Positions 1-46,192 of a DNA stretch of 46,592 bases are shown here, in pieces. The notes under the pieces were generated by a model. It did not search any database, was not told the origin of the DNA, and worked only from the letters and a program-made list of their open reading frames with translations. A program made the translations under genes and the position numbers. The DNA is from Rhizaria sp. SCN 62-66 (Eukaryota): contig MEDY01000119.1 in assembly GCA_001724265.1 (NCBI GenBank), positions 62,001 through 108,592 of the forward strand, in the 5' to 3' direction. Position 1 is the first letter of the stretch. Each line of letters begins with the position of its first letter.

Positions 1-3000
1 CAGGCTGAGCGCGAGGCTGAGGCCGAGGCGGAGGACGACCTGCACACGATGGATCGTCTGCTCTCGGTGCGCGGCGTGCTGCCATTCTCGGCGCACCTGC
101 TCGCGAAGCTGGGCAAAGCCGAAGACACTGCCGCGGCAATTGCGCGCGTGACTGCAGCCTCTGCGCCGGAGCAGACGCGTGCCGTGACCACGCAGGCTAT
201 GATGGAGCAGCTTGAGGTCCAGCTCTCACCGCTGTCTGCTCTTGCTGCACCGCTCGCAATGACAGACACAGCTTTCTTCCGCGCGCTGACTGACCTTACG
301 TTCTCGCCTACGTGGCCATACCCGGCATCGAATGAAGAGGAGGCTGTGCTCGGCGTCGCCCCGGCCGACTTTGCAGTCACCCCCGAGGTGTTCCGCACTT
401 ATCATCGGTCTTTCTACTCGTCGCCGCATTTCTCACTCGACCACGTTGCGCTCTTTGCTCCACCTGAGACGCGCGCCGCCGCCACGGCAGCGGGTGTCTC
501 GGGCTCTGGCACCAATCCTGGCCCCGACGCTGTCCCTGTAGCCCAGGCTGCTTTTTCGGCGGCCTCACGCAACTCTGCAGTTGTGGCTGCGAACATTGCC
601 GTGGGCCGCGAAGAGGACTACCTCTGCCAGCTGCGCAGGCTCGCGCAGCGCGGCAAGGTGGCAGCGCTGCTGGTGACACCCGTGGAGTTGTCTTCAGCCG
701 CTCGCGAGGCCGAACTTTACGTCGGCTACAACGACTTCTACGGCACGTACGCTCGCCAGGAGGGCGAGACGCTCGCGGCCGCCGCCGCGCTTGCTGCGGG
801 CGCGCCGCTGGACACGCCACCGTCGCTGTCGGTTCCCACGGCTGAGGTCCAAGCCGCGCTCGGCTCGCTCGACGCGCCGCGCACCATGCTGTGCACGACT
901 GCTGGCTCGCTGGGTTTCGAGGCGCTCTTTTCCCCACTTGCCGCAGGCCGCCGCACGCGCGCCGCGCTCAGCCGCCTGCGCGACCAGATCGCCGCGGTGC
1001 TGCGCGGCGAGCGGCGCTGGGGCATGGCGCAGCCCGGCGCAAACGGTGGCTCCGAGGCAGATGCGGAGGCTGACTCGTTGGTTGTGGTTGTGCGCTCGAG
1101 CGACGACCGCGACCTCATCGGCAACGGTCGAAACAACGCTGGTATGCTTGAGGTTAACCCTGCGCAGCCCATGACTGCATATGCGAATGAGACCCGCCGT
1201 CCGGCGCAGTTCTCGTTCCCGCTCTCCCGCTCGCTTGAGGGCGTGCTGGGCGAGGACTCAGCGATCGTGCGCGACATCGACCACCTGCTGCTCGCTGCGG
1301 GCGGCTCTGTCGAGGAGCTCGCGATGTATCTGACAGAGATCTCGCTGCGGCTTGTGCGTGCGCGCGCTGGCGAGGTCCCTGGCGAGCGCGCCGTGCTCGA
1401 TCGCATGGTTGACGTCTCTGTCGCTTCAGCTGCTGCGGACTCTGATTCTTCTGACCCCGCTAGCGCTGCTTCTGGCTCAGGCACAGGTCGCTTTGCGACG
1501 CATGCAGGTGGCGCGCCGACGGTGGCATCGCTTTCGCGCTCTGACTCTGCACAGAACCACGTTGGAGGTAGAGGCGCAGGCACTGAGTCCTTGGGCGCGG
1601 TGATTGCGGAGGGCGACGAAGATGCTGTTTCGAACGATGGTGACGCGATCGACACCGACAACGCACAACACCCACACAAGCATTCTAAGTCACCTCGGAC
1701 GGATGCCGAAGAGGAATTACCGATGCTGCCCGCGCCGGAGCTTCTGGCTCAGCTGTCGCTGTTTGGCTTCGACTCGCTGCCTCAACTCATCGTCGCCGTG
1801 TCTGCGCAGCGCGCCGCTGCTGAGGCTGCGCGCGCGGAGGCATACACGCAGCTGCACGACCCCACATGCTCGCTGCTCTCGATCCTCACTCCGCAGACCG
1901 CGCTCCCGCTTGACTCGCACGCCCAGCCCAGTGCTGCCCAACAAGAGAGCCCGTCTGCGCGTCTTCGCCCGACACCACCGCGTCCTTCGTCGGCTCCCGG
2001 TGGCGCATTTACGCTCATCTCACCCGCGCAGCTGCGCTCGATCCAGCTGTACACGCGCGTCGGCGCTTCGCTGCCCACCTATCTCTCTGAGATGGCTGCG
2101 CGCGGGGAGCGCTACGGTTCAGCGCAGGCTCTCGCGCTGGGTATTCTTGCCCGCCGTCAACGCGCCGACCGTCGCGCCTACGACGCCTTCTTGCAGTGGA
2201 CCGCGGGCGCGGACTCGCTTGCCGCTGCTGCCGCGCTTGCTGGCGGCGCTTGTGCCACTGCCGGCGCTCTTCAGCCGAGCGCGCCACTGGAGCCTGCTCC
2301 GATGTCCGCCGAGGAGGCTGCGGCGAATGCGCGCGCCGAAGCGGAGCAACGTGCGCTGCGCGCCGTGGCGATGCGCCTTGTGGGCGTGACGCTACCCGCC
2401 GCGCAGGACGGCGGCGCGCCGCGCGCGCTGCCCGGTCTGCTGCCGCGAGACGCTGACGGCTCCGCGCTGACTGCGGCTGACCTGCTAGCCCCGCGTCCTC
2501 CCGGAGAAGGCCCCGCGGGCGCGCGCACGCTGGTCAACGTCGGTGGCGCGCGCAGGCCTGGTGGCCGCAGTGTCAGCGTCCCGCGCCGCCGCTCCACGGC
2601 CGTGCCCGGACTGAAGCTCTCGACCAGCGCTGCTATGGACGCCGTTGCAGGCCAGGCCGCGGCCTCGCCTTCACCCGTCGCCGCGTCGGCCGCTGACGTC
2701 ACCGGGACCACTGGGGGCGCAAGTCCCACCGGCACTTCGGTGCCACACTTCGCACATGGCCAGCGGCCTGCCGCGGGCCGCATGATGTCGCTCGTCGACG
2801 CGTCGGTACTCATGGGTCCCAAGACCGCCGCGACGGCCAGCGGCAACACGACGGCTGCTGAGACTGATGCCGCGCTGCTAATGTCGACGACTCCCGTGCA
2901 GCCTCTGCCGCCGCTTGCCTCACTGCTTGCGCTCGTTGACGGCAGCGCGTTTGACCTGTTGACTGTGCTGGACGCCGTTGAGGCTAGACACACGCCGTTG

Positions 3001-6000
3001 TCGAACATTACTGATGTCATCAACGCCGTGCAGGGCATCCTCGGCCGCGCCGCGCCCGCTGCGGCTGGTTCGACGACAGCGACTGCCGCTGTCTCGTCGA
3101 TGGCGCAGACTCACGACCAGACAGCTGCATTGACCGCGACTAGACCGCCGCTCAATCTGGACTCAGTGCCTTCCGTATCCCCAACTATGAATGCCCGTAG
3201 ACTCGATAGCAACGCTGATGCCGCGCCTGTTAGCCGCGGTGACGGTGAAGCGGCTCCGACGACGATCCTGCAGCTGCAGCGCTCGTTGCCTCCCGGACAG
3301 TCGCTGCGCCGCTCGACTATGGACCTGCTTGCGCGTGGCTCTTCTACCAACCGATCTGCGTCCACCACGCCCGCTAATGTGCTTCGATCTCTCACTTTTT
3401 CTGGCGCCGCGGCTCCGGCCTCCACAGCCATTGCTGTGTCACGCGATGCCGACGGGCTGATGGCTGTGCAGCGCGCGTTTGCGCGCGCCGTGCGCCGCGG
3501 CGACGGCTCCGTGCCGGGCTTTATGACAGTTGCAGACAAGAACCCCGGCAGCTCTGAGGGCGATGCAATTGCACCTTCCAATCCCAGCTCGCAGCGCCAG
3601 CTGCTTGGCCCCTTCACTCCTGCACACGGCCAGAGTGCCACGTCGCTTATCGCGCCTTCGCCTGTCTCTGCAACCACGGGCTCTTCCTCAGCCTCTGGCA
3701 CTGCGACCACGACGCAGCAGCACCGCATGTTCGCTTCAATGTCGACTGACAGCCTGCCTGGTGTGTCGGCCGAGGGCGGACTGCCTCCTGCGCTGCTGCA
3801 GGCGATGCTGGCCGCCGGCGCGGGCTCGCTGCTGGGCCCCGAGGACGACGTCTACGGCCCCACGCTGAAGCCTGCGCGCACCCACCACGCCGACGCTGCT
3901 GCTGCGGTGCTGCTGCTCGACTCCGTTGGTGTTGCGGCTGCGGCCGCGCAGCGCGCGCGCAACGTGGTCGCTGCGCAGAAGCGCAAGGCCCGTCGTGCTG
4001 CCGCCGCTGCACGTGCTGCCAATGCTGTAAGTGCTGACGCAGCTACCTCCGCGGACGCTGCGACGCTGGCACTGCCGATGAGCGAGAGTGATGCGCCCGC
4101 TTCTGACGGCGAGGCTATGTCTACAATTCCCACGAGCGCAAGCTTGGCTGGCGTTCGATCCGCCGACGTACTCAATAGCGGCGGCGAAGACGACAATAAC
4201 GACGACCCCGATGCGGGCGTGATTGACGCCGTCGTGGCCGCAGTTTTGACTGCAGCTGAGCGCGTCAAGCGCGACAAGCGCCGTGCGCTGGCGCTGCTCA
4301 ACGCGCCTGGATCTACACTGCTCGGCGATGCGGGCGCTGGTGCCCTCAGTGGCACTGTTGGGGTGCTGCACACGGGCGCGCTTTCCGCGGCCGCCGTGCG
4401 CGATGGGCTTGCCCCCGCGCTGACCGCGGCTGACGGCGCGCCGATTCTGTCGTCCTCGTCCATGCTCACGCACGCACACGTGCATGGCCACGCGACGCCG
4501 GCGGCCGTGGCGTCCGCGGCAGACGTGGAGTTCCTGTTCCATCGCGTCGTGCATGCGGCTCGCGGCGGCAGCGACGCCTCGGGCCGCGGGCTTGGGCTCG
4601 GCGGCTCGCTCGACGGACTGACGGGCGACTCGACCGACGCCGGCGGCTGGGGTGGTGTGCTCGGTCACGGGCAGCTGCTCGGCGTGCTGGCCGCGGGCGA
4701 CTCGGTGCGTGCGCGCGTACTTGCTCACGCCGACACTGACGGCGGCGCCGAGCAAGGCGACGACGATGATGACGACGCAGATACCCTGCTGCCGGTGTCG
4801 TCACTGCTGCTCAAGCTCGATAACATGCGCAAGCGTGCAATTGCCGACAACATTGACGGCAAGACCGATGGCTCCGAACTGGCGCTGCCGCTTCCGACGC
4901 TCAGCGCTGGCGTGCCCGCGCTGGCTGTCGCGGCCGCGCGTGCTGCCGAGCGCGAGAAGCTGCGCCGCTACCTTTTGTCTGGCCCCGCGGTGTGCGCGCT
5001 GATGACTGATGCGGACGCATCCGAGCGTGGGCCTGCACTTGCGGGCGCTCTGACTGATGCTGCGCTTGATGCGATCCTGCATGCCGCGTCTGCCGCCCCG
5101 CCTGCTTCCGCCGCGCTCTCGACAGAGGCGCGCGCTCAGCAGTCGCCGCTTGACGCCAGCAACAGCATTGCAAACGCGCTGTGCTACTTGCAGGCACTGG
5201 ATCGCGGCGGTTTTAAGGCGGCTACAGTTGCGGACTTGCCCGAGCTTGTTGCAGCGCAGCACGTGGCCGCTCTGTCTGCCCGCGCCGGCATTGCGCGTGC
5301 AATCGTGGATGTGGAGCGCGCGCTGACTCAGCGCCGCGTCGCCACGGGGGGCGTCGAGCCGCCCGCGATCGACGTCCAGACCGTGGCCCGGTGGGCGCGC
5401 GCTGCCTTTGTCGATGGCTGCGCGGGCGAAAGCTCCGCCGCTTTCGCTGCCGAGGCTGCTGTCGAGGCTGCCGCGAAGGATTCTAAGGGTTCGCAGCCAC
5501 AATCACAACCGCAGCAGACTGAGAAGGCCGCTGCTCTGGCTGACGCAGCGAACGCCGCAGCCACCTCGGTGCGCACAGGCGTGGCCGTCACGCTGGTGTC
5601 GGACACTGCCTCGTCTATTGCTGCTCCTACAGTCGCCCCGCTCTCCGTTCACCGCTTCGCCGAGACCCTCGGCGCTGCGCTGCGCAGCAAAGAGCTCAAC
5701 CGCCGCGCCGAGCTCGCTGCCGTCCGCTACTCCGCCCCCGTCCCTGCCCCCGCTGTTGCCACCACTGCCAGCAAATCCACAACTATTGGGCTCGTGGCGC
5801 TTGTGGCCGCCGTCAAGGCCGAGGCCGATGCCGTTGCTGTGAGCCCCTTCTCCAGTTCGTCGCCCAGCGCGAGCGGCGACGCCCCCGCGGCCACTGCTGC
5901 GGCTGCTGCTGCGGCGAAGGTGAGCAGCGCGTCCACAGACGTCGTGCATGCCGAGTTCCGCACGCCATTCCAGCGCGGCCAGCGTGTGGCGCTGCCGCGC

Positions 6001-9000
6001 GAGGCCGAGCTCACGGCCGCTGGCGCTGCGGCGCATGCCCTGCTTGAGGGCGATGCTGTTGCTGCAGCGGTTGCGATGAAGAGTGCTCAGGCGCCGTCAC
6101 AGGGACCGACTGCTGCTGCAGTAGCTGAACTCACCGCGAGCGCCAAGGCCATTGCGACCGCTCACCACACCGATGCCAAGGCTGGCAGTAGCACCGTGAC
6201 GAGCATTGTGGTCGCTGAACAGCCGCTGTTGCCGTCTCAGGTGCGCAGGATGGAGGCGCTTTTGGCGCAAGCACAGCTGCGTCCTTCGTCCGCTTCTGCT
6301 GCGCCCGTCGCTGCGTCTACCGCCGCCTCTTCTGGCTCTGTGACGGCACCGGCTGGCACTCTGGCTACTGCCGCGGCCGACGCCGACGCGCTGCAGTTCG
6401 CGGCGCTGGTGGCTGAGTCCGTGCTGCGCTCCGACGCCGAGTGCCGGCTGTTCGCGGACGCGCACGAGGAGGTTCCGTTTGACTCGAGCGACGTGCTCAA
6501 GCTCTGGGCGCACATTGCCACCACGCTTCCGGGCGCTGCCGCCTCCGCTGGACCCAACGCGCTTGTTGGCGGACTCGACCTCGAGCTGCTGCCCGCTACG
6601 ATCGCGCTGGCCACGCGCATCGGCCACGACACCGAGGCGTTGTCACTGAAGCGCGCGCCCACGAGCTGGGGCGAGTTCGCCGAGGTGGCCAAGCTGCTGT
6701 GGGACCGCGAGGCGCTGCGTCTCACGCTCGCGCGCGGCGACGTCGACACCGTGGGACGCGGACACATGTTCGATAAGCTCGTCCCGCTGGCCGACCCCCG
6801 CGAGGCCGTCGACACCGCTCGCGCGCTCGACCTCCTGGGCCGCGCTGCGGACGCGCTCGCCAGCAACGCACAGGCCGCAGACCTCTCCACTGGCACCGCC
6901 TCTGGACAGGGCACTGACGCGGCTGGGTCGCGTCTGCGCTCTCAGTCAGTGATCGGCGGGGGCGTTGTGTTGGGAGCCAACGAAGCTTCTGGCGCACTTG
7001 CAGTGCCGAGCAGCAGCAGTAGCTCCGGCAGATTCAGCCCGCTTACGCCCATGCTCACGGGCCGCGGCGGTGTCTTACTTGCTGCAGGCGCTGGATCTCG
7101 CCCTGGCACGAGCCACGGCCGCTGTTTTGACCTATCTGGCCCGGAATTGGCGTCTAACTCGTTCTCGGGGACACCAGAGGCGCCGGCGGTGCTTTTGCGT
7201 GCTTTCATTGCCCGTGCTGCGCCTGCCTCGCGTGTGCCTGCCTCAGTCGAGCTCGCCGCGCGCGCACGTGGCCTGGACAGCGTGATCTTGGCTGCGCAGG
7301 GCGACACCGCCGTGGCGTGCGCAATCGCGCGTGACCTCGGCGAGCGCGGTGTTGTGGCGGCTTCCCTCGCGGACCTGCAGCCGCGTGTTGCTGCTGCCGT
7401 CGAGCAGAAGCTGGCTGACACGCGCGCTGTGGTGACTGCGCTGCGCGCCGTTGCGGGCAGCAAGACCGCGCTGTTGCTGCCCTCCGCGGGCGCCGACGCC
7501 GCTCTGCTTGCGATCCCTGCGACCGCTAGTACTGACGCCGCTGCGACTGCTGCTCTCGTGAGCAGTGCGGCTTACGCGCACGCGTCCGCGCTGGTTACGG
7601 GCGCGGACGCCTGTTCCACTGCTGTGCTGAACGCAATTAGCGACATGAGTACTGCTAACGCTGTTGCTATCAAGGAGGGCCATCCTGCACCATTTGCTTT
7701 TGCAAGCTGGGAGGCGCTTGCTGAGGGTGTGTCTGCTCTTACGCAACGCGCTGCTCTGCGCACTTTTATCGAGACCAAGACCCCGCTCACGTGCACCGAC
7801 AGTCCTGCTGCTGCAGCGGCTAAAAAGGACGCCACGGTGACCCAGGGCTTTGTGCCGTCCGTGCGCAGCAATACCGCTAGCAGCACCGCAGCATTCCCCG
7901 ACTCCGCGATCGACGCTATTGTTGCCCTGAGCGGCGGTGATCTCGACGTCGCGCGCGCAGCAATGCGATTTGCCAAGCGCGCCGCTACCGCTGCTGCCAA
8001 CAAGGCCACCACTAACGGCAGTTCAAGCGCGGCCTCGGCTGCGGCACCAGTTGTATTCCTTGACGCGGCCCACTCCAAAACCAGCACCAAGACTGACAGC
8101 CCGGATTCCTCGAGCAGCGTCGCCAACAATGCCGGTAGCGCTTCTGCAGACACGCCGCTTGGTGCGGTGTCTGCGTTGCCCACTCTGTCCGGGACCGCAT
8201 TGTCGTCCGCCGAGCTCGTCGCCTTCGCGGCACGCTTCGCCGAACAGCATGCGCGCGCTGTCGCCATCGCCGGCGTCATGCTGCGCCACCCGCGCTGCCC
8301 GGTGCTGTCGCGCCGCCGCCTCGCGCCCGCCGCGGCTGAGGACGTGCCCCCGCCGGTCTCCGCGCCTACCGAATCATTTGGCGACAGAGATGTCGCGACT
8401 GCGGAGGCCGCGCAGCGCGGACTAGACTGGGACGTCGGCCGCGGCATCGCGTACGGCTCGCTGCCGACCGGCGCCGCGGCCACGGGCACTGCATCAGCGT
8501 CTGTGCAGCTGCTAGTCGACGCTGCTGTGGCTCCGCGCGCCGTGCGCCGGCTCTTCTTGGAGCTGGGCGAGGAGCCCCTGGTGTTCGTCGAGGCCCTTAA
8601 GGGGCTCGCACGCTTCATCGAGGCCGAATACGCCGAGGAAGCGCGCTTGCGCTCCAAGTCGCGTCTGCAGCTGGAGCGGCGCGTGCGCGTGCTCCACCCC
8701 GATCGCCGCCGCCGTCGCCGCGAAGACGACGATGACTCCGATGAGAGCAGCAGCGAAGACGAGGCCAGCGTGCTTCAGAAGGCCGTGAGCCCCACGGCGC
8801 CGGTCGACCTGGGCTTCGCGACACTGAACCCCGGCGTCGTTGTCGCTCTCCGCGGGTGGGCCGTTGCGACTCGCGACTCCACTCTCGCGGCTGCCGCTGC
8901 TGCTACAGGAGTGCAGTCGCAGCCGAATCGCGCGACGCTGCGGTCCCGCGGCTCCCGCGCCCGCAGTCTGCGTCTCACGGGCGGTCGGGAGGGCGACTTT

Positions 9001-12000
9001 TCGCTCCTGGCGCTCAACCTCAATTCTCAGGCTGCCGCTGCGTCTGCAGGGTCGGTCAAGGAGGGCGATGAGCCCGCATCTAGCCCGCTTGACGACAACG
9101 AGTTTGAGAAGCCTTCTGACGAGGCCCGCGCGCGCGCCCTCGCTGCGGCAGACCCGTCTGCGCCGAAAGTCACGTTTGGCGTCGCGCGCCGCAAGAACAA
9201 GGACGGCGATGATGACAACGACCGGCCCCCGTCGTCTCTTGAGAAGGAGGCTGCCGACACAGCTGCGGCCGCAGAGGCTGCTGAAGCTGCGACGGCGGAG
9301 GCGGTGACTGCTCTGGCGCAGGCTGAGGCTGAGGCTGAGGCTGCGGCCAAGGCCGAGGCAGAGTCAGCTGCCAACAGTGCCGCCGCCGCCGCCGCTGCCG
9401 CCGTCGCTGCGGAGATTGCAGCCAAGCGCCAGGCCGAGGAAGAGGCTGAGGCTGCTCGCCTGGCCGCTGTAGCCGCTGTGGCCGCTGCCGAGGCCGCGCG
9501 CTTGGCCGCCGAGCAGGAGGCCGCGCGTCTAGCCGCCGAGGCTGCTGAGACCGAACGCAAAGAGGCCGAGGCTGCCGCGGCGCGCACCGCAGAAGAAGAG
9601 CGCTTGCGCGCGGAGGCCGAGGCCGCCGCCGCTGCTGCCGCTGCTGCCGCCAAGGAGGCCCAGCTTGAGGCACTTCGTCAACAGAAGGCTGCTCTTGAGG
9701 CCGCCGCTGCGGCCGAGGCCGCTGCCGCCGCCGAAGCCGCCGCCGCTGCTGCTGCTGCCGAAGCTGAGCGCGCGCGCCAGGAGGAAGAGCGTCTCCGGGC
9801 TGAGCGCATCGCCGCTGAGACTGCCGCAGCGGAGGAGGCTGCCCGTATTGCCGCTGAGGCCGCCGCCGCAGTCGCCGCCGCTGCTGCCGCCGAGGCTGCT
9901 GCTGCCGCGGAGGCTGCCGAGGCAGCCGAGCGCATTCGCGCTGCTGCACTGGCAGACCTGTTGCGCGCGCTTGACGCTGCCGACGCTGAGACCGAGCGGC
10001 TTGAGGCTGAGGCCGCGGCGCGCGCCGCTGAGGAGGCCGCCCGCACCCTGGCGCGCGCCCACCGCGAGGCTGCTGAGGCCGAGGCGCGTCGCGTGGCCGA
10101 GGAGGAGCGCCTCGCCGACGTCATGCGCCAAGAGCGGCTCACCGCCCTGCTCGCCGCGGAAGAGGAACGCGAGCGACGCGAGGAGCTCGCCCGTCTCGAG
10201 GCCGCCGCCGCCGCCGCTGCCGCTGCGGCTGAGGCCGAGCGCGTGAAGCGCGCAGCTGAGGCTGAGGCTGCGCGCGCGGCTGCCGCAGAGGCCGAGCGCG
10301 AGGCGATGCGCGAGGAGCAGGAGCGCCAAGCTCAGCTTGCCGCGCTGCTGGCGGCCGAGGACGAGCGCGAGCGCGAGAAAGAGCTCGCCCGCGCGCGCGC
10401 CGCCGCCGAGACGGCCGCCGAGGAGGCCCGCCTGCGCCGTGAGGCCGAGGATGCTGCACGCAGGGCTGCCGCGGAGGCCGCACGGCTCGCAGCCTAGCAG
10501 GAGGCCGCGCGCCTAGCCGCGGAGGCCGCCGAGGCCGAGCGTGTGCGCGCTGAGGAGGAGGCCGCGCGGCTGGCGGCGGAGGCGGTCCAGCGCGCGCGCC
10601 TTGAGGCCGAGCGCGAGACCGAGCGCGAGCGCCAGCGCGCGCTGACCCAGCTGCTCGCCGCACTCGACAAGGCCGAGCGCGAGGAAGAAGAGGAACGTGC
10701 GCGCGCTGAGGCCGCCAGGCTCCTCCGCGTCGAGGCTGCGGCTGCGGCCGAGGCTGAAGTGCTGCGTCTGGCCGAGGAGGCCCGCGTGCGGCGCGAGGCC
10801 GAGGCTGCCGCGCGCGCCGCCGCCGAGGCCGAGGCGGCCGCGGAGCGCGTCCGCCAGAAGCTGTTGATGGCGCTGCTGCTGGCCGAGGAGGAGCGCGAGG
10901 TGGCCGAGGAGCTGGCGCGGCTGCGGCGCGAGAAGGAGGAAGCTGAAGCCCGCGAGCGGGCGCGCCTGGAGGCAGAGGCCGCCGAGGCCGCGCGCCGCAA
11001 GGCCGAGGAGGAGGCCCGCCTCGCGGAGCAGGCGCGGCTCGCCGAGGCCGCGCGTATCAAGGCCGAGGAGGCCAAGCGCAAGGCTGAGGAGGAGGAGCGC
11101 GCTGCTGCCGAGGCCAAGCGCAAGGCCGAAGAGGAGGCGCGCCGCGCTGAGGAGGCTCGTCTGGCCGAGGTTGCGCGCCTCAAGGCTGAGGAAGAGGCCC
11201 GTCTGAAGGCCGAGGAGGCGAAACGCAAGGCTGCCGAGAAGCAGAAGCGGCTCGAGGCCAAACGGAAGGCTGAGGAGGAGGCCCGAGTCAAGGCCGCCGC
11301 GGCGGAGGAGGCGCGCAAGGCTGAGGAGCGCAGGCTCGCGCTGCTCGAGGCGGAGCGCGTTGCGCGTGAGGCCGAGGCCGCGGCGGCTGAAGAGGCTGCT
11401 GCGGCGGCGCGGCTCGCGGAGCGACAGGACCCCCGCGCTGCCCGCGAGGCGCGCCGGCGCAAGGCCGAGGAAGAGGCCGCCGCACAGACCGCCGCGCTCA
11501 AGGCTGAGGTCGCTGACGAAGAGGCGAGCAAGAAGGCCGCCGAGGAGGCCAAGGCGAAGAAGGAGAGCGATAAGAAGGCCAAGAAGGACGCTGCGGCGGC
11601 TGCCAAGGCGGCCGAGGAGGAGGAGCAGCGGCGCGCGATGGCTGAGCTGAACCTGACCGCTGAGGAGGCCGCCAACGTGGAGCTGCGCGAGAAGAAGGGC
11701 AAGGTCAAGGCCGCGCAAAACGGCATGATTTTCGACGATAACTGGCACGACTTAGACCTCAGCGAAGCCGCCATGGACGCTGCACTGGCGCAGGACGCGG
11801 ACCTGTTCGACGAATACGTGTGCATGCATCTGCAGTCGCTTGAGCTCGAGCGCGTTGGCTTCGTTGGCTATCCCTATATCACCGTCGAGCGGCTTGACCG
11901 CACGGCGTGGGACCGCATGGGCGTGACAGAGATCAGTAACGGACAGCAGAGCTGGCTGTACCAGCCCCTCGTGCTCAACTTCAACAAGCTTACCGGCCGC

Positions 12001-17536: not shown

Positions 17537-20500
17537 TCAGAGCGCAGCCTTCATTCTGAAGGCCTTCCTGCCCGCGGCGTACTCGCCGAGGCGCTCCCCC
17601 GCGGCGGCCGCGGCGGCGACGACCCGCGCGAAGCCCCAGTGCGGGATTGCCCGCGCCGCCGCTTTGAGCGCCAGCATGTCGTCGGCGTCGCGCGCACGCC
17701 CACAGAGCTGCAGCAGCTGCAGCGCAAACTCGGACAGCACTTCGCGCTGCTCTGCCGAGCCGCCCACTGCGGCGATGGCGTCGGTGGCGTGGCCGCGCAG
17801 CATCACGCCGCATTCGCTGCCGCTGCTGCTGATGCTGCTGCCGTTGTGGCCATTGCTGCCGCTGTTGCTGTGGACGCCGAGCGAGAGCGCGGAGCTGCCC
17901 GCCAGCGCAGGCAGCGACAGCACGTGCGCCGGAGCAGCGGCAGCGGCGGCAGCGTGCGCGTGGGCGTGGGCGTGGGCCGAGATGTCGACTGTGAGCGGCA
18001 TCGGCGGCACGGCCACGAGACTGAGGCCCGCGCCGTCCGCGGGCCCCGCAGCGACGGCGGCGCGCGCGACTGCCAGCGCGATGACCTCACTGTCGTCACA
18101 GCCGCCACCGCCGCCGCTGATGCCGCCGCTGTCGCCGTCGATGTCACTGTCTTCGTTGTCGTCGTCGCAGTAGCTCTCGATGAGTGCGGCCACACTGCTG
18201 CTGCCGTTGCCCCCGTCGGTCGAGCGCAGAGAGGAAGAGGAGACAGAGCCTCCGGGGGGCGCGTTCACAAGCAGCGCCAGCGACGCCGGGAGCAGCAGCG
18301 CGGGCGCCATCAAGCCGACGCTGCTGACCGCGCTGCTGATGCTCGGCGCGTGAGAGGCGCGGCCTTGCTTAGCGCTGCCGCTGTGAGAGCTCGCCGTCGC
18401 ATGGCCCGGGACCGTTGTGCTGGCAGTGAAGGTCGCTGCCGCGGCGGCGAGCGCGGCGGCTTCATCCGCAAGCACGGCGTCGCCAAACAGGGCCAGCGCC
18501 TGCGGGTCGGCCTGCTCACGGTCACCATCGAGCCCATGGTCACTGTCGTGCTCACGGTCACTTGCGTCGCTCTCGTCGTCGCTCGCGCTAGCACTGGCGC
18601 TCGCACTCGCCGTAGCGCCCGCACTCGACGTCGCGCCCGCACCCGCGCCCGCGCTCGCTGTCGCGCTCGAACCGCGGGCACGGCTCGGCGGCTTAGGACT
18701 GCCCGCCCCAGCGCTCGCGGCGCCGGCGTTGGCGGCAGCGTTGGCGGCAGGGTTGGCGCCGGGGCTGAGGCGGCGCCTGCGGGCCCCCAGCAGCGGCGAG
18801 GCGCCGGAGCCTGCCTTGGCGCTGCCGGCACCAGCGCTCGCAGCTGCAGCAGCCGCCGCCGTTGCGCCGCTACCGCTGTTGTTCGTGCTGCCCGCTGCGA
18901 CAGCGCTCGGCGGACTGGCCGGGCTGGCCGCCGGGGCGACGACTGGCGAGACGCCCGCGCTGCTCCCCGCGTTGCTGGCCGCGGCGCTCGCGTTTGCGCT
19001 GGCGGCGTTTGAGTTGCTCTGGCTGCTGCCGTTGCCGCCATTGCCGCCCCCGCTGTGCGCGCCGCGGATGGCCGCGGGCCCTAGCAGCGGCGCCAGAGTG
19101 TCGGCCGCGGCCGCCACGCCGCCGCGCGCCCAGAGCCTGACGGCGGCGAGCACAGGCAGCAACGCGCGGTCGAGGCTGCCGCGACGCGGCTCGGGGGACC
19201 GGTGCACAGCGACCGCGGCCGAGGAGGCGAAGGCGTCGAGCACGTCCTCGACGGCGGCGCGCGCGGCGGCCGAGAGGACCAGCGGGGACAGGTCGTGTGA
19301 GGCCAGCGCGGACTAGGCGGCGGAGATGCTGCTGGCGCTAGCGCTAGGGCTGCTGTTGCTGGGGTTAATACCGAGAGCAATAAACAGTGCGGAGACAGAA
19401 GCAGCAGGGTTGATCTCACTGTCAATCTGCGCATCGGCACCACCACTTTCAGCATTCACAGTCACATTCGTGTCGTTGTTAGTGCAGTCGCCGCTGCCGC
19501 TGTTGCAGTGGAGGTACGGGCTGTGCGCGATGACCGCGGCGGCGACGGCCTCGTCCTTGGCGGCCCGTTCCACGCGCGCCAGCACGTACGCGGCCATGAT
19601 GTCGTAGAACGGGTCCGCGTGCGACGGAGACCGGTGCTTCAAGTACTTAAACACGCTGCGGAAGCGCGCGTTGAGCAGCGGAACCGTGTCGCAGTACGGC
19701 ACAACGGCCGACAGCGCACGCAGATATGCCGCGTCGCTAATATACACCGAACTCGCACCTGCACTCACATTCAAGCCAGAGTCTGCGTCGGTAGAGCCCG
19801 TGCTGCTGCTGCTGCTGCCGCTGCTGCTGGTGTTGTTGTTGCTTGCGCAGGGGAAAGGCGTGGGGAACGCGGCGCGCAGAGCGAGCAGCGCGCGCGGAGG
19901 CAGCACTTGGTCCATCCACGCCAGAGAAGGCGGGAAACCAACTGCGCACGCGAGCGAACGCGACTGCGACAGCGATTGGGCCTGAGTGCGAGACTGCGAC
20001 TGCGCACCAGCTGCCGCGGCACTGGCCGCCGCCGCTGCCGCGGCTGCCGCAGCGCTGGCCGCGACGGTCGCGGCGCGCGTGTTGAGGCGCATCTCGAGCT
20101 TCCAGAGCAGCCCTGCGGCGCCGAGCTGGTCCTGGCTCGAGTTGGGGTCCTGCAAGGGGAATGGCGGCGGCAGCGACGGCAGCGCCGCGCCCGCGGGCAG
20201 CGCGTCCTGCAGCAGCGCGTGCGGCAGTGGCAGCGGGGCAGGCGCGGCGCCGGCGCTACCGGCATCGCTGCCGCTAGTGCCACTGCCGCTGCTGCTGCTG
20301 CCGCTCGGTGTGACTGAGGGGTCGTTGGCGGCGCTGGCACGATCGAACCAGAGCAGCTCGCGCATGGGGCACTCGAACGCACTGTTGGAGCTGGCACTCG
20401 ATGACTGCTGTTGTTGACTGTCGTTGCTGGCGTTGCCGTTGCCGTTGCTGCGGGCAGCGCGCTTGCGGCGGTCCTTGAGGGCCGAGAGCACCCAGAGCAG

Positions 20501-22226
20501 CGACTCGCAGTCCCAGGGGCCCAGGCGCCGCGCCGCCGAGCCGCTTGCAGCCGCAGCCGCGCTCGCAGTGCTCTTGGCGTCGCCAGCAGCGCCGGCGCCG
20601 GCGCTGCTGTGGGGGCCCGCAGCGGGCGCCTCGTGAGGCAGCGGGCTGTGCGGGGAGCGGTCAAGCTCCACTAGACCGGAGCCCTGAGACTGTGGCTGCG
20701 ACAGAGAGAGAGCCTGCGAGTTCAATGCCGCGGAGTCATGCGAGACAGGGGACGTCGTGCTGACGTCCTTGTTGTTGTCGTTGTCAGTCAGCTTCGTAGC
20801 GCCCGACTCGGACATACTCTCCGCGGCTTCTGTCAACGCCTCCGCGTCCGCGGCGGCCTCCTGCCAGGGCCAGACCGCCCGGTCCCAGACGGCAACGACG
20901 TCGCTGAACGCGTCCAGGTCGAGCTGGAAGAGCGCGATGTGGAACCAGTTGTGCGTCAGCATGAATGACATCGAGCGCCCCCACAGCGGCGCGCGCCGCA
21001 GCATAAACCGCAGCCCCGGGCGCAGGCGCGCGAGGTAGTAGAGCGCGTGCGCGGCGCCGTGATGCGCCCAGGGGTCCGCGGGGCTCAGCCGCGCGCCCGC
21101 GAGCCCGGCGGCGAGCGCGGCCGAGAGTCGGCCCGCCTGCTCCAGCGCGAAAGCCAGCATCCCGTGGTAGTACGGCCGCGCGACGACGGGGGCCGCGGGG
21201 GCCGCGCTAGAGTGACCGTGGCTGAGGTTGTTGTGGTTGCGGTTGTTGTGGGGCGCGCAGGCGGCGCTGACTGCGGGGTCGGCGACGACCGAGAGCATCA
21301 GGCGCGGGCTGCCCAGCAGGAATGCGAGCAGCTGCGCGCGCTTAGCGGCGAAGAGGTCCGCTGGGTGCGCGGCGGCGATGCGCGCGAACAGGTGGTAGGC
21401 GCGCGCGGTGTGGCCCTCGAGCCAGCTGGACATGAGGAGTTGTGAGAAACAGATTTGTGAAGCAAGCGTGAGAGTTGAAAGAAAGTGCCAGACAAGAAAA
21501 TAAAAGCACAACAGGTAGAATTCACTCAAATATGTGAATATATTGCCAATTCTTCTCTCTTTGTTTTCCCGCGTACGTTTTGAAGGCCTGTACGTAGAGC
21601 CGCTCGCGGCTGCTGAGCCGGGCGCCGCCGACCGCCTTGAGGCGCGTCGCGGCCTTGACGAGCGAGACGGCGCCGGGCACGTCCTCGCAGGCGAGCGCGT
21701 AGTCGGCGGCAAGCACGGCAATGAGCGGGGACGTGGGGTCGAGCGCGCGCGCGAGGGCGATGACGCGCCACTCGCGTCCGTACGATAGCACCTGCTCCAC
21801 GTAGGCCGACACGAGGCGGCCCAGCGCGGCCACAGCGGGCGCCGGCAGGCGCGGCGACACGCAGAAGGGCAGGCCCTGCGCGTCCACCGCCAGCCCGGGG
21901 GCCAGCGCGCCCGCGGGCAGCGCGGCCACGCTCGCGGCGGGCGCCGCGCTAGAGCTCGGGCCCGTTGCGGACGTCGCAGCCGCAGCGCTGGCGGGGGCAG
22001 CGGCGGCGGAGGCGGAGGCGGAGACGGCTCTGGCAACGGCGGCGTGTGGGGCCGCGGCCGTGGCGGCGCGGCGAGAGGGCGACGGCGGGCTGCGGGGGCG
22101 CGGGGACGCGCTGCGGAGGCCAGAGAGCGACGTCTGGTGAGGCTGCGAGCGCGGCTGCTGTTGCGACTGCTGTTGCTGCTGCGAGGCAGCGGGCGCGGGG
22201 CCGGAGTCCGGGGCGCGCTACGACAT
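17537..22226 (-). CDS. TTC38: TTC38-like tetratricopeptide-repeat protein, about 1512 aa; exons 22226-21577 and 21425-17537; in-frame TAGs at 22220-22218 and 19315-19313
   Basis: Family motifs in order: RERLYVQAF.WLEG, HPADLFAAKRAQ, YYHGMLAFALEQAG, PADPWAHHGAAH, FMLTHNWFHIALF, GLLWKLEM, HADPFYD. After the TAG come LLPVLAAV..ADTLAPL and GGSAEQREVL. Ends TGA. The start at ATG 22226 is less certain. Confidence 0.82.
19313..19315 (-). other. In-frame TAG upstream of the conserved C-terminal TTC38 motifs
   Basis: ATC TCC GCC GCC TAG TCC GCG CTG = SISAA*SALASHDL. The same frame continues to TGA 17539. Confidence 0.85.
21426..21576 (-). other. Spliceosomal intron (151 nt, phase 2) of the TTC38-like gene
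   Basis: GTACGC donor and ...CATGTCCAG acceptor, AT-rich. Splicing gives YVQAFKTWLEGH. Confidence 0.88.
22218..22220 (-). other. In-frame TAG at codon 3 of the TTC38-like gene
   Basis: ATG TCG TAG CGC GCC CCG = MS*RAPDSGPAPAASQQQQQ. The frame runs without another ATG into the TPR domain. Confidence 0.6.
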
Positions 22227-31964: not shown

Positions 31965-32345
31965 GTGAGTCACAGAAGTATAGCAGTTTCTATATAATCT
32001 GTAAGTTTCGTTGCGAGCTGGTTTGACTAAATGCCAGGAGAGACTGGATGAGTCTGGGTCGGGGTGAACGGCAGGAAGGATCAGGAAAAAGTCTATCTTT
32101 GCCGAAGGCAGGAGCTAAAAAAACGCATAGCGTCACATACACATCGTCAATTTCAATGTAAGAAAATGATACGTGGCAATCCATAATAATTTGTGATCAA
32201 GTTATTTTTGCAGTTCGTAAATCTCACGATTTCCCCTTTTAAATCTCTTCTTCTACCTCGTTCCCACGCCGCAGCCCTCGCGTCACCCTCTTAACCTGCC
32301 ACTTCCTGTCCTCACCTATCGTGCCGCCTTCGGCCACTGTCAACG

Positions 32346-38638: not shown

Positions 38639-39245
38639 GCTTTACATCTGCGAAATCCGAGATTCGGTTTCTTTTTGTTCGTATTGTTAATTTAAGTGTT
38701 ATTTCTCTTCTTATAGCAACAGATTTGTTTGATTTATCTCATTATTTCTTCATGAATTAGTACGTACACCTACTTGTACAATACAACGACGATTTCAGCA
38801 CGTCAATTTCAGTGATAGAAACGATTGAATGAGTTTGTGATGCCAAATTATCGTACTTCTTTCCGTTGGCAAAGCGTGTTTGTACCATCACTTGGAAGCA
38901 GTTCCATACGAAATCAACAGCAATCATTTTGGTAGAACATTGTTAAAAATACGCGTGACAGTCCATGCTGTGGAGCGAATCAGAGACATACGAACGAAGT
39001 GATGGCTTTGGGACGATCTCTATTCTATTATGTGCATGTACTTGTACGTATTCGAACACAATGACGATTTCATAATACGGAGTGTAAGTATGCCAATGTA
39101 CGGAGCAATAAGGACAGTTTTAATATCTAATCAAATTATTTATTACGTACTTCTTTCTTGGTATGTATCTCTGCTATGTAACGAACTTTTCATTCCCAAT
39201 TATGCGACAGTTGTCGTCAGCATGTTGTGATGCATAGTTGCAAAC

Positions 39246-40818
39246 TTAAAAGCGACGCACCCCGCCACCGCGCATGACCTGCGTGAACGCGTTGCTGCCG
39301 CCATACACATCGTCGTCGTCGTCGCCGTCGTCGTAGTAGTCATTGCTGTTAACGCCAAACTCACCGCCCATGAATGTCCGAGCCTGCTGCGGTTGCTGCT
39401 GCTGCAGCTGCTGTTGTTGCTGCTGCACAAAGAGCGCACCACCAGGTCCGCCCAGCAGCCCGCCCAGATACACGCTGCGGCCGCCACCAGAGCTACTTCC
39501 GCTGTTATCATGTGCAGCCGCAGCTGCCTCTTCGTCGAAGGCTTCACTCGGTCTAGTCATCCCGCCGTCGCCGTCGTTGTCATGATCGCCCCACGCGTGG
39601 CCGCCGCCGCCCCACTGTGCGCGCGCCTCGGCCGCGCTCATCACGTGCGCCTGCTGCCCCTCGACCCCGTCCGCGCCAGCCGTCACGAAATTAAGCCGCG
39701 CGCTCCCGCGCTCGCGGCGCTGGCGCTCCTCCTCCAGGCTGCGCAGCGTCTCCGCGGCGCGCGCGCGCACGTACGCGCGCTGCTGCGCGGCGGCCGCAGC
39801 GCCGCGACGGGACGCCGCCTGCTCACGTTCAGCTGCGGTGGCCAAAGCGCCGTTAGCGGCTGCGCCAAAGTGTGCGCGGTCGCTCGGAGCCAGCTCCATC
39901 CGCCCCGCATTGCGACGAGACTGAGTCTTCTGACTGCCGTTAGCCCCCGCGCCGAGTCGCGAGCCCGCCAGCGCGGCCGTGATGCCGAGCGTGCTCCGGA
40001 GGAGCTCGTCCTGCGCCCGTGCATCGGCCTCGGCGGCGGTCGCGGCCTTGGCGGCGGCGCAGGCTTGCGCGCGCGCACGCGCCTGGGCCTTGCGCGAACT
40101 CTTGCTGCCACTCGCCTCACTGCCGTCTTCGTCATCGTCCTCGTCCTCGTCCTCGTCGTCGACGCCGTCGCGGTCCTCGTCCTCGTCGACCTCGCTGCCG
40201 TCGCCCATACCCGTCTGCTCGCTGTGGTGGCCGCGCAGCCGCGGCAGCGGGTCTGTGCGGCCGTAGCCCAGCACGGCGGGGTGCCGGCTGTCGTCGTCAC
40301 AGTCGTCGTCGTCCGTCGCGTCGCGGTAGCCCCGCACGTCGTCGTCGTCACTGTCATAGTCGTCATCGCTGTCGGCAAAGCCACTGCCGCGGCTCTTGCC
40401 CCGGCCGCTCGGACGGCCGCCATCGTCGTCGTCGTCGCCGTTGTCGCCGTCGTACTCCTCATCCGGGTAGTCGATGTCGCTGTCGTCCGTGTCAAACCCC
40501 GCCGCCAGCGCGCCGCCGCGGCGGCCCCATTCGTCCTCGTCTTCGCTCCCGCTTCCGCCGTCCCCCGCGGCACCGCCACGGCTCGCACGGCCGCGGCCGG
40601 GACCGCGGGCGTCGTCGCCGCGGCGCCGGGAGCCGCGCGCGTCGGCCGTGGAGTCGAAAACGAGCTCCTGCTCCTGCAGCAGCTCCCACACGTCGAACTC
40701 GTCGAAGTCGTCCGTCAGCAGCTCGCTCAGACTCACCGTCGCGCCGTCCAGCGCACCCAACTCGTCACCGCTCGGCGCGACGCCCCCGCCGCTGCCACGG
40801 CCGCTACTGCTACTGCTG

Positions 40819-40853
<35 letters not shown>

Positions 40854-43682
40854 GCGGCGCCTGCGCAGAGCGTCGCTGACGTGCGAGATGAACGCGGTGA
40901 GCGATGGCGTGTGCACATGGGCGAACGCGCCGTAGCCGTACGCGCTGCTGGTCAGGGCCGCTGACTCGGCGTCGGCAATGGCGGCAGCGTCGCCACCGTC
41001 TTCAGCAGCAGCAGCGGCGTTGTTGGCGTCAGCCGTCGTGTTCCTCGCGTCGTTCACGTGACTGGTGCTGGTAGTAGTAGTCCTACTGTGGTCTGTATCG
41101 TCGCGACCACGCTTGCGCCCGCGCGACGCCGCAGAAGTTAGGCCGCCAGCCGTGGAAGCTTGGCCGCCCAGCGCGTCCCTGCGGCGCAGCAGGTCGCCGA
41201 CAACTGCGGCTGCCGAGTCGCCGTGCAGCTTCATCGCGAGCGCGACCGTGAGCGGCGCCACCGTGAGCGGCGCAGCAGATCTCGCGGCAGAGGCAGACGC
41301 AGTCAGTGTGCGCCCGCCGCCGTTGCTCGCGGGCAACGCGGGCATCGGGAGACAGGTGTCGCTGTCACTGCGGTTGCCATCAGTGGTGCCCCCGATACTG
41401 AACGCAGGCCGCGGGCGCTGCGCCTGCGTCATGTGCGCGTCGCGATTGTTCTGGGCGTTCACAGAGGCAGCGTCGACTTCGACCAGCTCGTACAGGTCGT
41501 ACACGTCGTCGTCGCCGCCATCAGCCTCGCTGTCGCTGCTGCTGCTGCTGCTGCTGATGTCGTCAACAACATCACGCGCAGTCTTCGCCGAAGGCGTCGC
41601 CGCAGCGCTCGTCCTGGCGCTATCATGTGCATCCCTCCTGAGATCGACTGTAGCCACAGCGCGAATTGAGCCGTTCGCGCTCGTTGTCTCCGTCGTTGCA
41701 GCACTAGCATTCCCGTTATCGACAATCGCCGAGACCGTCGCTGCCGCAGTGTCCGTCGCCGCCGCAGTACTCGCGGTGGCGCCCGTGCTCGTGCGGGCGC
41801 GCGCGGCGGCGGCGGCAGAGCGCCCACGCGCGACGGGCTTGAAGCTGTACGTGGCGGGGTCGCGGGCCTTGCTCACTCTGCCAGCGGCGCCGCCCAGCGC
41901 GGCTAAGGCAGCCGCGGCGGCGCTTGCGGTCGCGGTCGCGGTGAGGCCCGGGCCAGCGCTGCCGCTCGCGGAGAGAGCGCTGCCGCTGACGACACTAGCG
42001 TTGTTGGCATGCGAGAGCGGAGCCAGGGGGAGGAGTGACTGGCGGTGGTTGGTGCCGAGGAAACCCGACGCAGAGACGCCGGTGCCGGCGACAGAGCCAC
42101 CGCCAGCGGCAACAGGAGCAGCAGAGGCAGAGCTAGAGGTCGCGCTCCCAGTCCGAACATCACCATCATCGTCGTCGTCGCTGCTGCTGCTGTTACTGTC
42201 TCCGCCGAGGTGACTCAGCGCCATCTCCCCCTTAGATCCACGCGCAACCTTAGACCCACCTTTAGCCTTGGCTTCGGCGGCGGCCTTCTTACTGGACTGT
42301 GCATGTGCCTGTGCCAGCGCCGCTTTGGCGGTGAGCCCCAGTGCGCCCGCGCCGGTCCTGCGGGAGGCAAAGTGCGCCAAGTATGCCGCCACGTCGGGGT
42401 CCATAGCACTGGCGGCCGCGGCGGAGGCTTCGGTGTCGGCGAGGTCGCTAGTGAGCGAGCCAGCAGCGCGGCTGGCGGCGCTACTGGTGGCTTTGTTTGC
42501 GACAGAAAGGGTTGCAGTGTGAGTGCCCGATGCAGCGCTAAAGGGACCGAAAACAGGCTTTGCGACCGCGTTGGTAGTTGCAGCCGTGGGCAGGCGCAGG
42601 ATGTGCTTGCCATTGACCATGGGGGCAACGTCGATGAATGCAGTCGCAACACCCGCACTCGCGCTTTCGGAGAATGGCGTCTCGGACATAGCAGCATTAG
42701 TACTGCTGCAGCTGCTGCTGCTGCTGCCGGAGGCTGGTTGCAAGCTGAGAGCGTGCGCGTGCTCAAAGTCGAGCCGCGCCTTGTTCGACATCAGACCAGC
42801 GCCGTTACTCCCACTCCCACTTCCGCTCGCAGTCGCGGTCGCGGTGGCAATCATACCCGCAATAGGGGTGGCGCTAGAGCTGTAGCTAGAGTTGGAGCTC
42901 GAGCCAGCATTAGAGCTGAGGTTGTTGCTGCTAGCGTGAAACGACGGGATGGTCGTAATACGGCGCCAGACCAACGCCTTTGGCCCCTGCTATCCCTGTT
43001 GCCGTTGCAGCTGCCCTGTCTCATGCTGCTGTTGTAGCTCGGTGTCGGCGTTGCCGCGACCGCTTAACTTGCTCACAAACTCAGCCGCCGCCGGCAGAGA
43101 AGAGAAGGGAGTCTCCAGTTCGGCAGGGAGCGAGGCCAAGCCGTCGGAGGGCAGCCCCGCCAGCGGCGTGTGGCTCATCGCCAGCGCGGCTGCAATGCGC
43201 GGGTCCATCTCCGAGTGAGCGATAGCGATCGCGCTCGCGCGACCGTTAGCGTTTGTGGGAGCAGGGTTAGGGTTCGAGCTTGAGCTGGCAGCGTCGGGGC
43301 CGGGTTGGGAGGACGGGGAAAGCGTGACGCGCGAGAGATGGTGCTCCAAAACAGACGCGGCCCGGGTGCCCACACTGGCAACGCCGGCGACAGCGTCAGC
43401 AGCAGCGGCAGAGATGGAGGCATTAACCGAGGCGGGGGCAGGGCGCTTGTTCGTGGGGCCGACAACAGCGCCCGCCCCAGCAGCTGCGGAAATCGAGATG
43501 TCACAGACAAGCGTCTCGTGGGCAATTTCGCGTCGGGAGCGCTTGAGACGAAGGACTTGGCGCGGGGCCGGCGCGTCTCCAGCTGCGCGGGCCGGCGCGG
43601 AGGCCGCGGAAGGACGGAACACCGGAGCGGTGTTGTCCATCGACCGGCGCTTGCTATTCAAAGGATTGCACACAGAAGACAT
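39246..43682 (-). CDS. IWR1: Iwr1/SLC7A6OS-like RNA polymerase II nuclear-import factor, about 1478 aa; in-frame TAG at 42992-42990
   Basis: N-terminal VLRLKRSRREIAHETLV (about 43556-43510), DDDVYDLYEL, and acidic GFDTDDSDIDYPDEE (40472-40455) match the Iwr1 LRxKRxR, YDxY and DYPDE pattern. ORFs 42990..43682 and 39246..42974 are one frame split only by TAG. Ends TAA. Alternative start at ATG 43640. Confidence 0.7.
40801..40851 (-). repeat. Trinucleotide (AGC/AGT)n microsatellite encoding poly-Ser
   Basis: A run of ctg/cta triplets on the + strand, read as a poly-Ser tract in the Iwr1-like gene. Confidence 0.85.
42990..42992 (-). other. In-frame TAG within a Gln-rich stretch
   Basis: Reads LQQQHETGQLQRQQG*QGPKALVWRR. 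Confidence 0.85.
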
Positions 43683-46192
43683 CGTCAGTGAGAGATTCGT
43701 GAAACTTACAGCTAATGTTCTACGGAATTTAACTGAAATGTTAATTTATATCTGGATGATGCTCGTTTATCTGGAGATATGGCCGTAATCCGTAGTCTTT
43801 TCCCTGAAGCAGCCAAAATACCAATCCACCACAAATCAGCTTTCGGTAGTCAACACGATTAAACCAACGCGATACCACTTAAAGTGCTCCATAATTAGAT
43901 ATACAAAGCGCATGCACTCATTTAAACTGATGGATATAGCTTGAACGCACATTGCTTTGTTCGATGGTGTGCGTATGTATCCCTATAACTACGTGATAGT
44001 GTATTCTTCCTGCAGTGTTTCGCCTCTCACAAACTATGGAAGCATGTATATTGTGTTGTCAATTCAGTGTTGCCAACGTCAACACATGAACTTTGATGTA
44101 AAGATACCGCAAAACATCCCATGGAGCGAACCAAAACACCGCTAGATCACTTGAAGTTGTAAGAGTCGTTGCTGATTTGGCTAGACCCGCACTCGCCACA
44201 TGTCATCATGTCAGTGATTTGCGACAATCGTTGAGTGTGACATATGAAAAATATCACCACAATATGCAGTTATTGCAACACGCGCGGCGCTCTATTTTGT
44301 TGCCGTTTACATTAGTTGTTAAGTCATGACTATCATCTCACTTTCCTATCGCCAAACGTACGTAATACAGCTCTTTCCTGCATCAAGCATCCACTCACAT
44401 TTTCTCCCAGTAGCTTGAGCTGTAGTGACTAGACATTGTGTCAGACCATTTGCTGATTATATGAGCGTTTTGCAGCTTGAGAGAAGGAGGAGTGATCCAG
44501 GCTCGCTGCGTTGGTGCACATGCTGCGGCGCATGCGCGAGATGGATAAACAAGATAAATATGTTCAGGGGGCGCGTCTGTGAGCCCAATTGCACAAGGCG
44601 TCACAATGCAAATTCAGCTTTAGGACTGGCGATTGCTATATCATTGTCACCAGAGAGTGTGGAACTTGTGATGGCTGTGAGTAGCTCGAGATGTCTGAAT
44701 AACAAGCACTTTTCAGAATAAGCATCAAAGCGCGAACCACTAATACTACACCAACGTTCAGATGGTTTTTACTGATATGACAGACTACAGATAACGTGAG
44801 GAAAACATTTTGGATGTATTCAATATTAATGACGAATAATATGTCGTTCTATTGACTTTAGTTGGTCGATCATCTTACTTTATGCAGCCAGCAGCTCCAA
44901 CCCAGTCTCAGACAAGGAAGTTGCGGTCAGCAAAGCTCAGATCATCGTCATTCTCGTGACACATGTTGACATATGTGCGAGTTCCTCGGAAGTAATTAAT
45001 GATCGATAAGTTTCCCGTTATTGATGTTGCTTAAACCTCGAATTGTACTAACTTGGGTTATATTAGCACATGTATGTTGTGATAATGTCATTTCGCACCA
45101 TTTGACTGTGGCAGTCACTGGGGCTTCACTGGCCGCGGGCTCATCATCATCGCACTTCTCAATCAAAAATGGGACACAACTGAAAACTTCAACACGTACT
45201 GTGTGCGCAACGCTAGTTTTCTGCGTTTTCTATGATACCTCCGCTCCGCTATGGGTCCTTTAGCCCGGCCGGCCGTGTTACACCCTACCCACATCAGCTC
45301 ATCCTTATAGTCAATATCTCACAATAGAGTAAAAATGTGTTTGGGGTTGTTTAATAACATGATTATGAATAATACGTGGGGTGTATTTCTTAGTACATGT
45401 ACATATATGTACAGCCATTCAGATATGGCAAGGGATGAATCCACGTCATTGAATGCTATCCACAGACTCGTGACGGCACTCAGTTTTTACAATTCGCACC
45501 TGTATTGGAATTTCATTATGAGTACTACAGTCGTATATGAAACTGAGGACTACACATGTCTCGGAAATAAGATTGTTTTATAATAATCGTCATCTATATT
45601 ATAAATCTGCTATGGACCTACACCTGGCCGATATTTTGAGAACCCATGCTCACAGTCACTTTTCCTAACAACCCCGGTGGGGCAGGTGGTGTCGACGTGT
45701 GCGCAACGACAATGTGAGATTGCTAACCATTTGCGCTTAACAATGACGTCGGTTACATGTGATAAAAGTGTTTATGAATTGAAGATGATGTATAGTGAAG
45801 ATCCCGAAAATTATTATGACTAAATGCCCAAAAACGACCCTGGCAGATCTCATTGACATTCGCAGCCCAACGGACTGGTGACGGGAGGCGACCTTCCTTC
45901 GGCTCCCAGAGGAACTTTGGGGTGAGGAAAACGGCATGCAGGCAGATGTTCTTGATATGAGAATGGTTGCTTATTGCTACGTTTGTTGTGTTCTGTTTGC
46001 TTTGTTTGGTGGCAGTGTTTGACGCTTCTTTTATGAGGCAGGAAGAGGGGTCGAGTTGATGTCGCCACCAGCGCAGCGCGGAGTTGGACCATTTTGGTTG
46101 CTCGCCCTCCTTCACACCGACCATGGAATGGCTTGCCTCTTGCTAACCGTGTACCTTTTGTTGCTGTCTGTTTGCTTTTCTTGCGCAGAGAC

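Follow-up and report, generated by a model that had tools for sequence, protein, structure and literature searches.

In-frame TAG codons in long genes of a GC-rich eukaryote-like contig and the probable reading of UAG as a sense codon

The split frame at 39246..43682

The 46,592-nucleotide (nt) stretch of contig MEDY01000119.1 analyzed here (positions 62,001 to 108,592; assembly GCA_001724265.1, filed as Rhizaria sp. SCN 62-66; hereafter the window, numbered from its first letter) carries on its minus strand a gene at 39246..43682 whose reading frame contains one TAG codon, and the meaning of that codon is the subject of this report. Across most 2-kb bins the G+C content (GC) of the window is about 0.65-0.73, its spacers are AT-rich, and long open frames are present on both strands. 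The gene runs from ATG 43682-43680 to TAA 39248-39246 and comprises 1478 codons plus the TAA stop; its sole in-frame stop is TAG 42992-42990 (-), codon 231 of 1478, which lies between an N-terminal basic motif and the remainder of the protein in the residue context QLQRQQG*QGPKAL (the asterisk is the TAG). An initial annotation had described a frame split at this TAG, with LRLKRSR upstream and YDLY and DYPDEE downstream, and we reproduced both the coordinates and the order of these elements. The product is of low complexity (Ala 19%, Ser 13%, Gly 11% and Asp 9%). The open frame exceeds chance expectation: over the same 1478 codons the other two frames contain 23 and 65 stops, and the chance of a 1247-codon open run past the TAG, computed from these other-frame stop counts, is about 1e-9. 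The terminating TAA at 39248-39246 is followed by DNA of 35% GC, with the next in-frame stop 23 codons on. The public gene call P0002 corresponds to residues 15-230 of the product and ends at the TAG.

Is the TAG real DNA? The region 39000-44000 is nearly complete in runs X1-X3 (bioreactor and wastewater metagenomes from two studies, of which X1 may be the window's own source) and partly present in run X4 and in X5, a metatranscriptome of polyA RNA from activated sludge. Assembled contigs were compared with positions 30000-44500. In X2 and X3 the DNA contigs span 42255-44500 with 0 differences from the window, TAG included, and TAG 42992-42990 is therefore real DNA. The X2 and X3 tables are identical and possibly represent one data set filed twice; letters matching the window also recur in runs filed in other years. 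The near-identical DNA of X2/X3 thus reads TAG, and not the CAG that the initial annotation had set as a refuting observation. A contig of X4 is collinear with 42313-43096, gapless and with 16 substitutions, which indicates a strain about 2% divergent. On the target gene the X5 RNA contigs cover 40471-40744, 40868-41151 and 41257-41503 with 0-3 differences each. The X5 depth is zero in the bins 38712-39195 and 44036-44500 (spacers) and also in 36776-37259 (coding), so absent cover is no evidence either way. Hundreds of contig joints were considered as possible splicing and rejected, as their sides are 20-28 letters long and of low complexity, and such joints occur in the DNA runs too.

In-frame TAG codons and gene ends across the window

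When the window was read with TAA and TGA alone as stops, two further frames were joined across a TAG. TAG 10495-10497 (+) joins the frame 1..10497 to a C2-domain part ending with TAA at 13905 (4634 codons in total), and TAG 19315-19313 (-) joins 21433..19316 to a frame ending with TGA at 17537 (1298 codons in total). The 7 large genes, 12,128 codons together, thus contain 3 in-frame TAG, 0 in-frame TAA and 0 in-frame TGA codons. After TAG 10495-10497 there are 1135 open codons and the next 200 nt have a GC of 0.78 (GC is 0.78 on both sides); after TAG 19315-19313 there are 591 open codons, the next 200 nt have a GC of 0.79, and the downstream GC at third codon positions is 0.93; after TAG 42992-42990 there are 1247 open codons and the next 200 nt have a GC of 0.60. 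The eight accepted gene ends (5 TAA and 3 TGA) have the next in-frame stop within 1-25 codons and a GC of 0.30-0.41 in the next 200 nt, and none of the eight is a TAG. This count leaves out TGA 15436-15438, which lies inside an inferred intron (intron 2, below), and a doubtful open reading frame (ORF) at 45850-46485 that ends with TGA. In-frame codon-usage log-odds scores are above zero in each of the six 300-nt segments that flank the TAGs (+0.25 to +0.57 per codon), both other frames score below zero there, and after seven true stops the range is -0.45 to +0.11.

Because three TAGs lie in three genes, each followed by hundreds of coding-like in-frame codons, and none of the eight gene ends is a TAG, we think it probable that UAG is a rare sense codon throughout this organism and is translated in the target gene, with UAA and UGA terminating. 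By the same counts the two halves of the target would be one gene in which the TAG must be read. The proposal in the initial annotation that both halves form a single gene needing read-through thus stands, on window-wide evidence that it had not cited; its assignment of the codon to Gln is not supported in the form given (below). Mechanistically, the UAG at codon 231 would be translated as an amino acid within a single 1478-codon gene; decoding would fall to a tRNA whose anticodon is CUA or to an efficient near-cognate one; and the release factor eRF1 would presumably no longer recognise UAG. Gene callers that use the standard code would cut the genes of such an organism at every TAG, as in P0002 and a second public call, P0003, and so leave fragmented public protein sets.

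Several observations weigh against UAG being sense. Only three TAG codons are present; low-complexity sequence surrounds each of them, and none occupies a site that is conserved between species. The eight accepted gene ends are a small sample, and the 46,592-nt window holds no tRNA gene. The training set of the log-odds score included one out-of-frame segment (24 stops in 8456 codons), which blurs the score, although the contrast survives. Among the 16 differences of the X4 strain only those at 42807 and 42846 are listed, both at third codon positions, and among the X5 RNA pieces listed none spans any of the three TAGs. The appearance of an intron in this DNA is defined by just two reference introns (below). 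Lastly, 70% of the single-base nonsense changes possible under this codon usage give TAG, which makes P(3 of 3)=0.35; that all three in-frame stops are TAG is by itself not significant.

The last point bears directly on a quite different explanation, in which the code is standard and the TAGs are true stops, either in genes broken by nonsense mutation (through decay, or because the assembly captured a polymorphic allele) or between pairs of separate genes. With 70% of random nonsense changes yielding TAG, three TAGs with no TAA or TGA would be unsurprising; a single G-to-T change would also turn the paralogous GAG (below) into TAG 10495, and gene callers split the genes in the same way (P0002 as above, and P0003 begins 16 codons past TAG 10495). 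Such breakage would, however, have struck three of the 7 large genes without leaving a frameshift or any other stop in 12,128 codons, and in-frame codon usage is kept for hundreds of codons downstream of the TAGs. An AT-rich spacer follows every accepted gene end and none follows a TAG; in the target the first ATG 3' of the TAG is 45 codons downstream, with no spacer between. The recurrence of the window's letters in runs filed in other years also counts against this explanation, and we regard true stops as very improbable.

Could each TAG instead lie inside a short in-frame spliceosomal intron of a standard-code gene? The organism does have introns: the ankyrin-repeat gene at 14507-16806 (-), recognised by Pfam matches, contains two inferred from its translation. 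Intron 1 (15913-15749 (-), 165 nt, GTACGT...CAG, GC 0.38) is one across which the repeat would continue in frame, and across intron 2 (15515-15403 (-), 113 nt, GTACGT...AAG, GC 0.37) it would continue in a changed frame. In-frame GT..AG spans can be drawn over all three TAGs (25, 41 and 59 candidates), there is a slight GC dip near the target TAG (0.53-0.68 in 60-nt windows), and the target candidate 43076-42990 (87 nt, GTGAGC...ATAG, GC 0.60) preserves the frame. Both reference introns, by contrast, have GTACGT donors, a GC of 0.37-0.38 and stops in several frames, whereas no GTA[CT]GT donor occurs in any of the 25, 41 and 59 spans, whose lowest GC values are 0.76, 0.56 and 0.57, respectively. 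On either side of each TAG the codon score stays above zero as far as the TAG itself. At TAG 10495 every candidate span has a GC of at least 0.76, and an intron there would seem practically excluded, since the 23-codon block that contains this TAG matches its paralogue codon by codon along its whole length. As an explanation of all three TAGs we consider introns very unlikely. No introns besides the ankyrin pair were recognised in the 46-kb window, and the organism seems intron-poor.

A further alternative keeps the standard code and makes UAG leaky, so that context-dependent near-cognate read-through yields some full-length protein, or invokes U-to-C editing of the mRNA. Read-through is favoured when a stop codon is followed by C and when CAA or CAG follows UAG, and the base after the three TAGs is C, T and C, with TAG-CAG at two of the three sites. 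Low-level read-through, on the other hand, would leave the 591-1247 codons beyond each TAG mostly untranslated, yet their coding features are kept. Dependence of three of 7 genes on read-through would, to our knowledge, far exceed anything seen in standard-code eukaryotes, and we know of no general mechanism that edits stop codons of nuclear mRNA. We give leakiness or editing little credence, and the reading of UAG as an ordinary sense codon remains the one we prefer.

The amino acid at UAG and known UAG codes

Which amino acid would a sense UAG specify? The initial annotation had argued for Gln from the Gln-rich surroundings of the target TAG, where the DNA reads CAA CAG GGA / TAG CAG GGG, possibly a QQG/xQG duplication; this context is a weak argument, and the sole paralogous comparison in the window points elsewhere. 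It places GAG (9511-9513), a Glu codon, in the block 9481-9549 (+) opposite TAG 10495-10497 of the block 10465-10533. These two blocks form the best ungapped match (score 105; next best 74). Over the 23 codons the blocks agree in all 22 residues around the TAG, 11 of which are specified by synonymous codons that differ between the two copies; the TAG takes up exactly one residue position, and the amino-acid repeat runs uninterrupted through it. Several further units of a 39-nt repeat family (D13) have GAG at the TAG-equivalent position. For TAGs 19315 and 42992 the window holds no informative paralogue, nor did the searches find an orthologue. The comparison suggests that Glu would be the most economical assignment if selection keeps the peptide at 10495; it concerns one site, and an E-to-Q replacement or Leu would also be compatible with it. 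On these sequence comparisons we would place Glu first, at a little short of an even chance, then Gln as a substantial possibility, with any other residue (e.g., Leu) rather unlikely.

UAG-only reassignment is known from very few eukaryotic lineages, and each new case tests how UAG and UAA uncouple. Panek et al. (2017, PMC5304391) describe it for nuclear genes in Iotanema spirale (UAG=Gln) and in the rhizarian exLh (UAG=Leu). As described there, both resemble the window in having UAG in frame in several genes with UAA and UGA terminating, and exLh has 384 UAG in 71 genes, compared with 3 in 12,128 codons (0.25 per 1000) in the window (PMC5304391). The window differs from both in being strongly GC-rich, and its one paralogue comparison suggests Glu, which is used by neither. 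For phyllopharyngean ciliates McGowan et al. (2024, PMC11687900) give independent UAG-only reassignments, once to Leu and twice to Gln, from metagenome-derived assemblies; there, as in the window, UAG alone is reassigned and UAA is kept as a stop. The window differs from these ciliates in its coding GC of about 70%, in being a 46-kb multi-gene contig and in its long low-complexity genes. Against what we take to be the usual look of ciliate genomes, it does not appear ciliate-like.

In peritrich ciliates both UAA and UAG (together UAR) are read as Glu. The same UAR=Glu code is described for Blastocrithidia (PMC12153298). Like the block at 10495, these codes would have a stop of the UAR pair read as Glu, but they also reassign UAA, whereas five of the eight gene ends in the window are TAA. 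The present case fits the known UAG-only kind, with the rarity of UAG, the GC-richness and possibly Glu as differences; the last would set it apart, as all codes with Glu at UAG that are known to us reassign UAA as well. That a lineage without relatives in the searched collections reads UAG alone as Glu, with UAA and UGA terminating, is a tentative reading and on balance a doubtful one. We know of no description of such a code. If UAG=Glu were true, it would have arisen in a genome whose coding GC of about 70% disfavours codons that begin with T and contain A.

No relatives of the downstream ORF of the target were found in metagenome or genome contig collections, none of the C2 part in viral or metagenome contig collections, and none of the ligase part (below) in genome contigs; the window itself was also absent from these collections. 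The only protein homologue found for the C2 part was P0003, a strain variant, and no report of a GC-rich eukaryote from wastewater that uses UAG as a sense codon appeared in the literature searched. If UAG is indeed sense here, its carrier would be an uncultured, GC-rich, intron-poor organism that lacks relatives in the searched collections and recurs in wastewater reactors, which would provide material for studies of its RNA and protein.

Iwr1-like motifs and other features of the window

The initial annotation had also described the target gene as like that of Iwr1, an RNA polymerase II (Pol II) import factor. Iwr1 binds assembled Pol II, takes it into the nucleus and is usually encoded once per genome. 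Three motifs underlie this. LRLKRSR (43553-43533 (-), residues 44-50), basic and resembling a nuclear localization signal (NLS), is the unique match to [LIVM]R[LIVM]KR[KRS]R; YDLY (41501-41490 (-), residues 728-731, within DDDVYDLYELVE) is the unique match to [YF]D[LIVM]Y; and DYPDEE (40472-40455 (-), residues 1071-1076, within DTDDSDIDYPDEEYDGD) is the unique match to DYP[DE][DE]. Each pattern thus has one match in the 93,180 six-frame residues of the window, and all three lie in the target frame, at residues 44, 728 and 1071 in that order; the patterns follow the initial annotation and the usual picture of the family, not a computed consensus. The likeness to Iwr1 lies in the succession of a basic NLS-like motif near the N terminus, an aromatic-acidic motif and a DYP-acidic one, an order that we take to be that of the three conserved regions (N-terminal, central and C-terminal) of the Iwr1/SLC7A6OS family (Pfam PF08574). 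According to Esberg et al. (2011, PMC3112208), three distinct regions are highly similar among Iwr1 homologues, and Benini et al. (2015, PMC4372478) assign to Iwr1 a bipartite NLS at the N terminus and a central nuclear export signal, the fish and yeast proteins being only 14% identical. The target product, at 1478 residues, compares with 326 for the zebrafish protein (PMC4372478).

The family searches count against this identity. The Pfam Iwr1 profile hidden Markov model, which the initial annotation had put forward as a check on the read-through product, gave no Iwr1 match at E<=10 with the whole product or with four segments covering the motifs; across Pfam as a whole the product had only a chance-level permease match and the four segments matched 0 families (E<=10). 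An exhaustive phmmer search of residues 1-1200 against 1.84 billion representatives had P0002, the target's own fragment, as its sole match. In the PDB the product had two chance-level matches (E<=10), neither of them Iwr1, and a search of the ESM Atlas with residues 940-1060 gave no usable match. None of the 11 candidates from a word-based search near DYPDEE reached E<=10, and YDLY and DYPDEE lie 340 residues apart in the target. A word-based homologue search with residues 1-400 found none among the 8000 candidates scored. The identification as Iwr1 thus keeps its motifs, unique in the window and in the expected order, and has lost the expected match to the family by profile or homology. Judging from the motifs, we lean toward the view that the product is a very divergent, insert-laden Iwr1-type Pol II import adaptor not filed as a member of the family. 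An adaptor of this type would need both halves and therefore the reading of the UAG. If the product is truly Iwr1-type, the family tolerates large low-complexity inserts yet keeps three short motifs.

Among the other genes, 1-13905 (+) is open at its 5' end and has at least 4634 codons; it encodes Ala/Glu-rich, coiled-coil-like sequence of low complexity that gives way to a globular C-terminal region bearing a C2 domain (Pfam), and it forms one frame only when TAG 10495 is read. The strain variant P0003 (1136 amino acids) has a 16-residue in-frame insertion relative to the window. The 1298-codon gene at 17537-21433 (-) matches no Pfam family and depends on the reading of TAG 19315 for its continuity; the sequence right after that TAG appears less repetitive than the remainder. 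At 22822-29571 (+) lies a gene for an NAD-dependent DNA ligase of 2249 residues, whose adenylation, OB-fold and helix-hairpin-helix pieces occupy residues 690-743, 1494-1572 and 1885-1931 with very long low-complexity inserts between them; NAD-dependent ligases are of bacterial or viral type, and one is unusual on a eukaryote-like contig. No dispersed repeats were found in the window spacers. The spacers 21434-22821 and 31758-32956 have a GC of 0.57-0.61, unlike the remaining AT-rich spacers, and may represent untranslated regions, further exons or small genes; an X5 RNA contig lies on 32159-32450, within the second of them.

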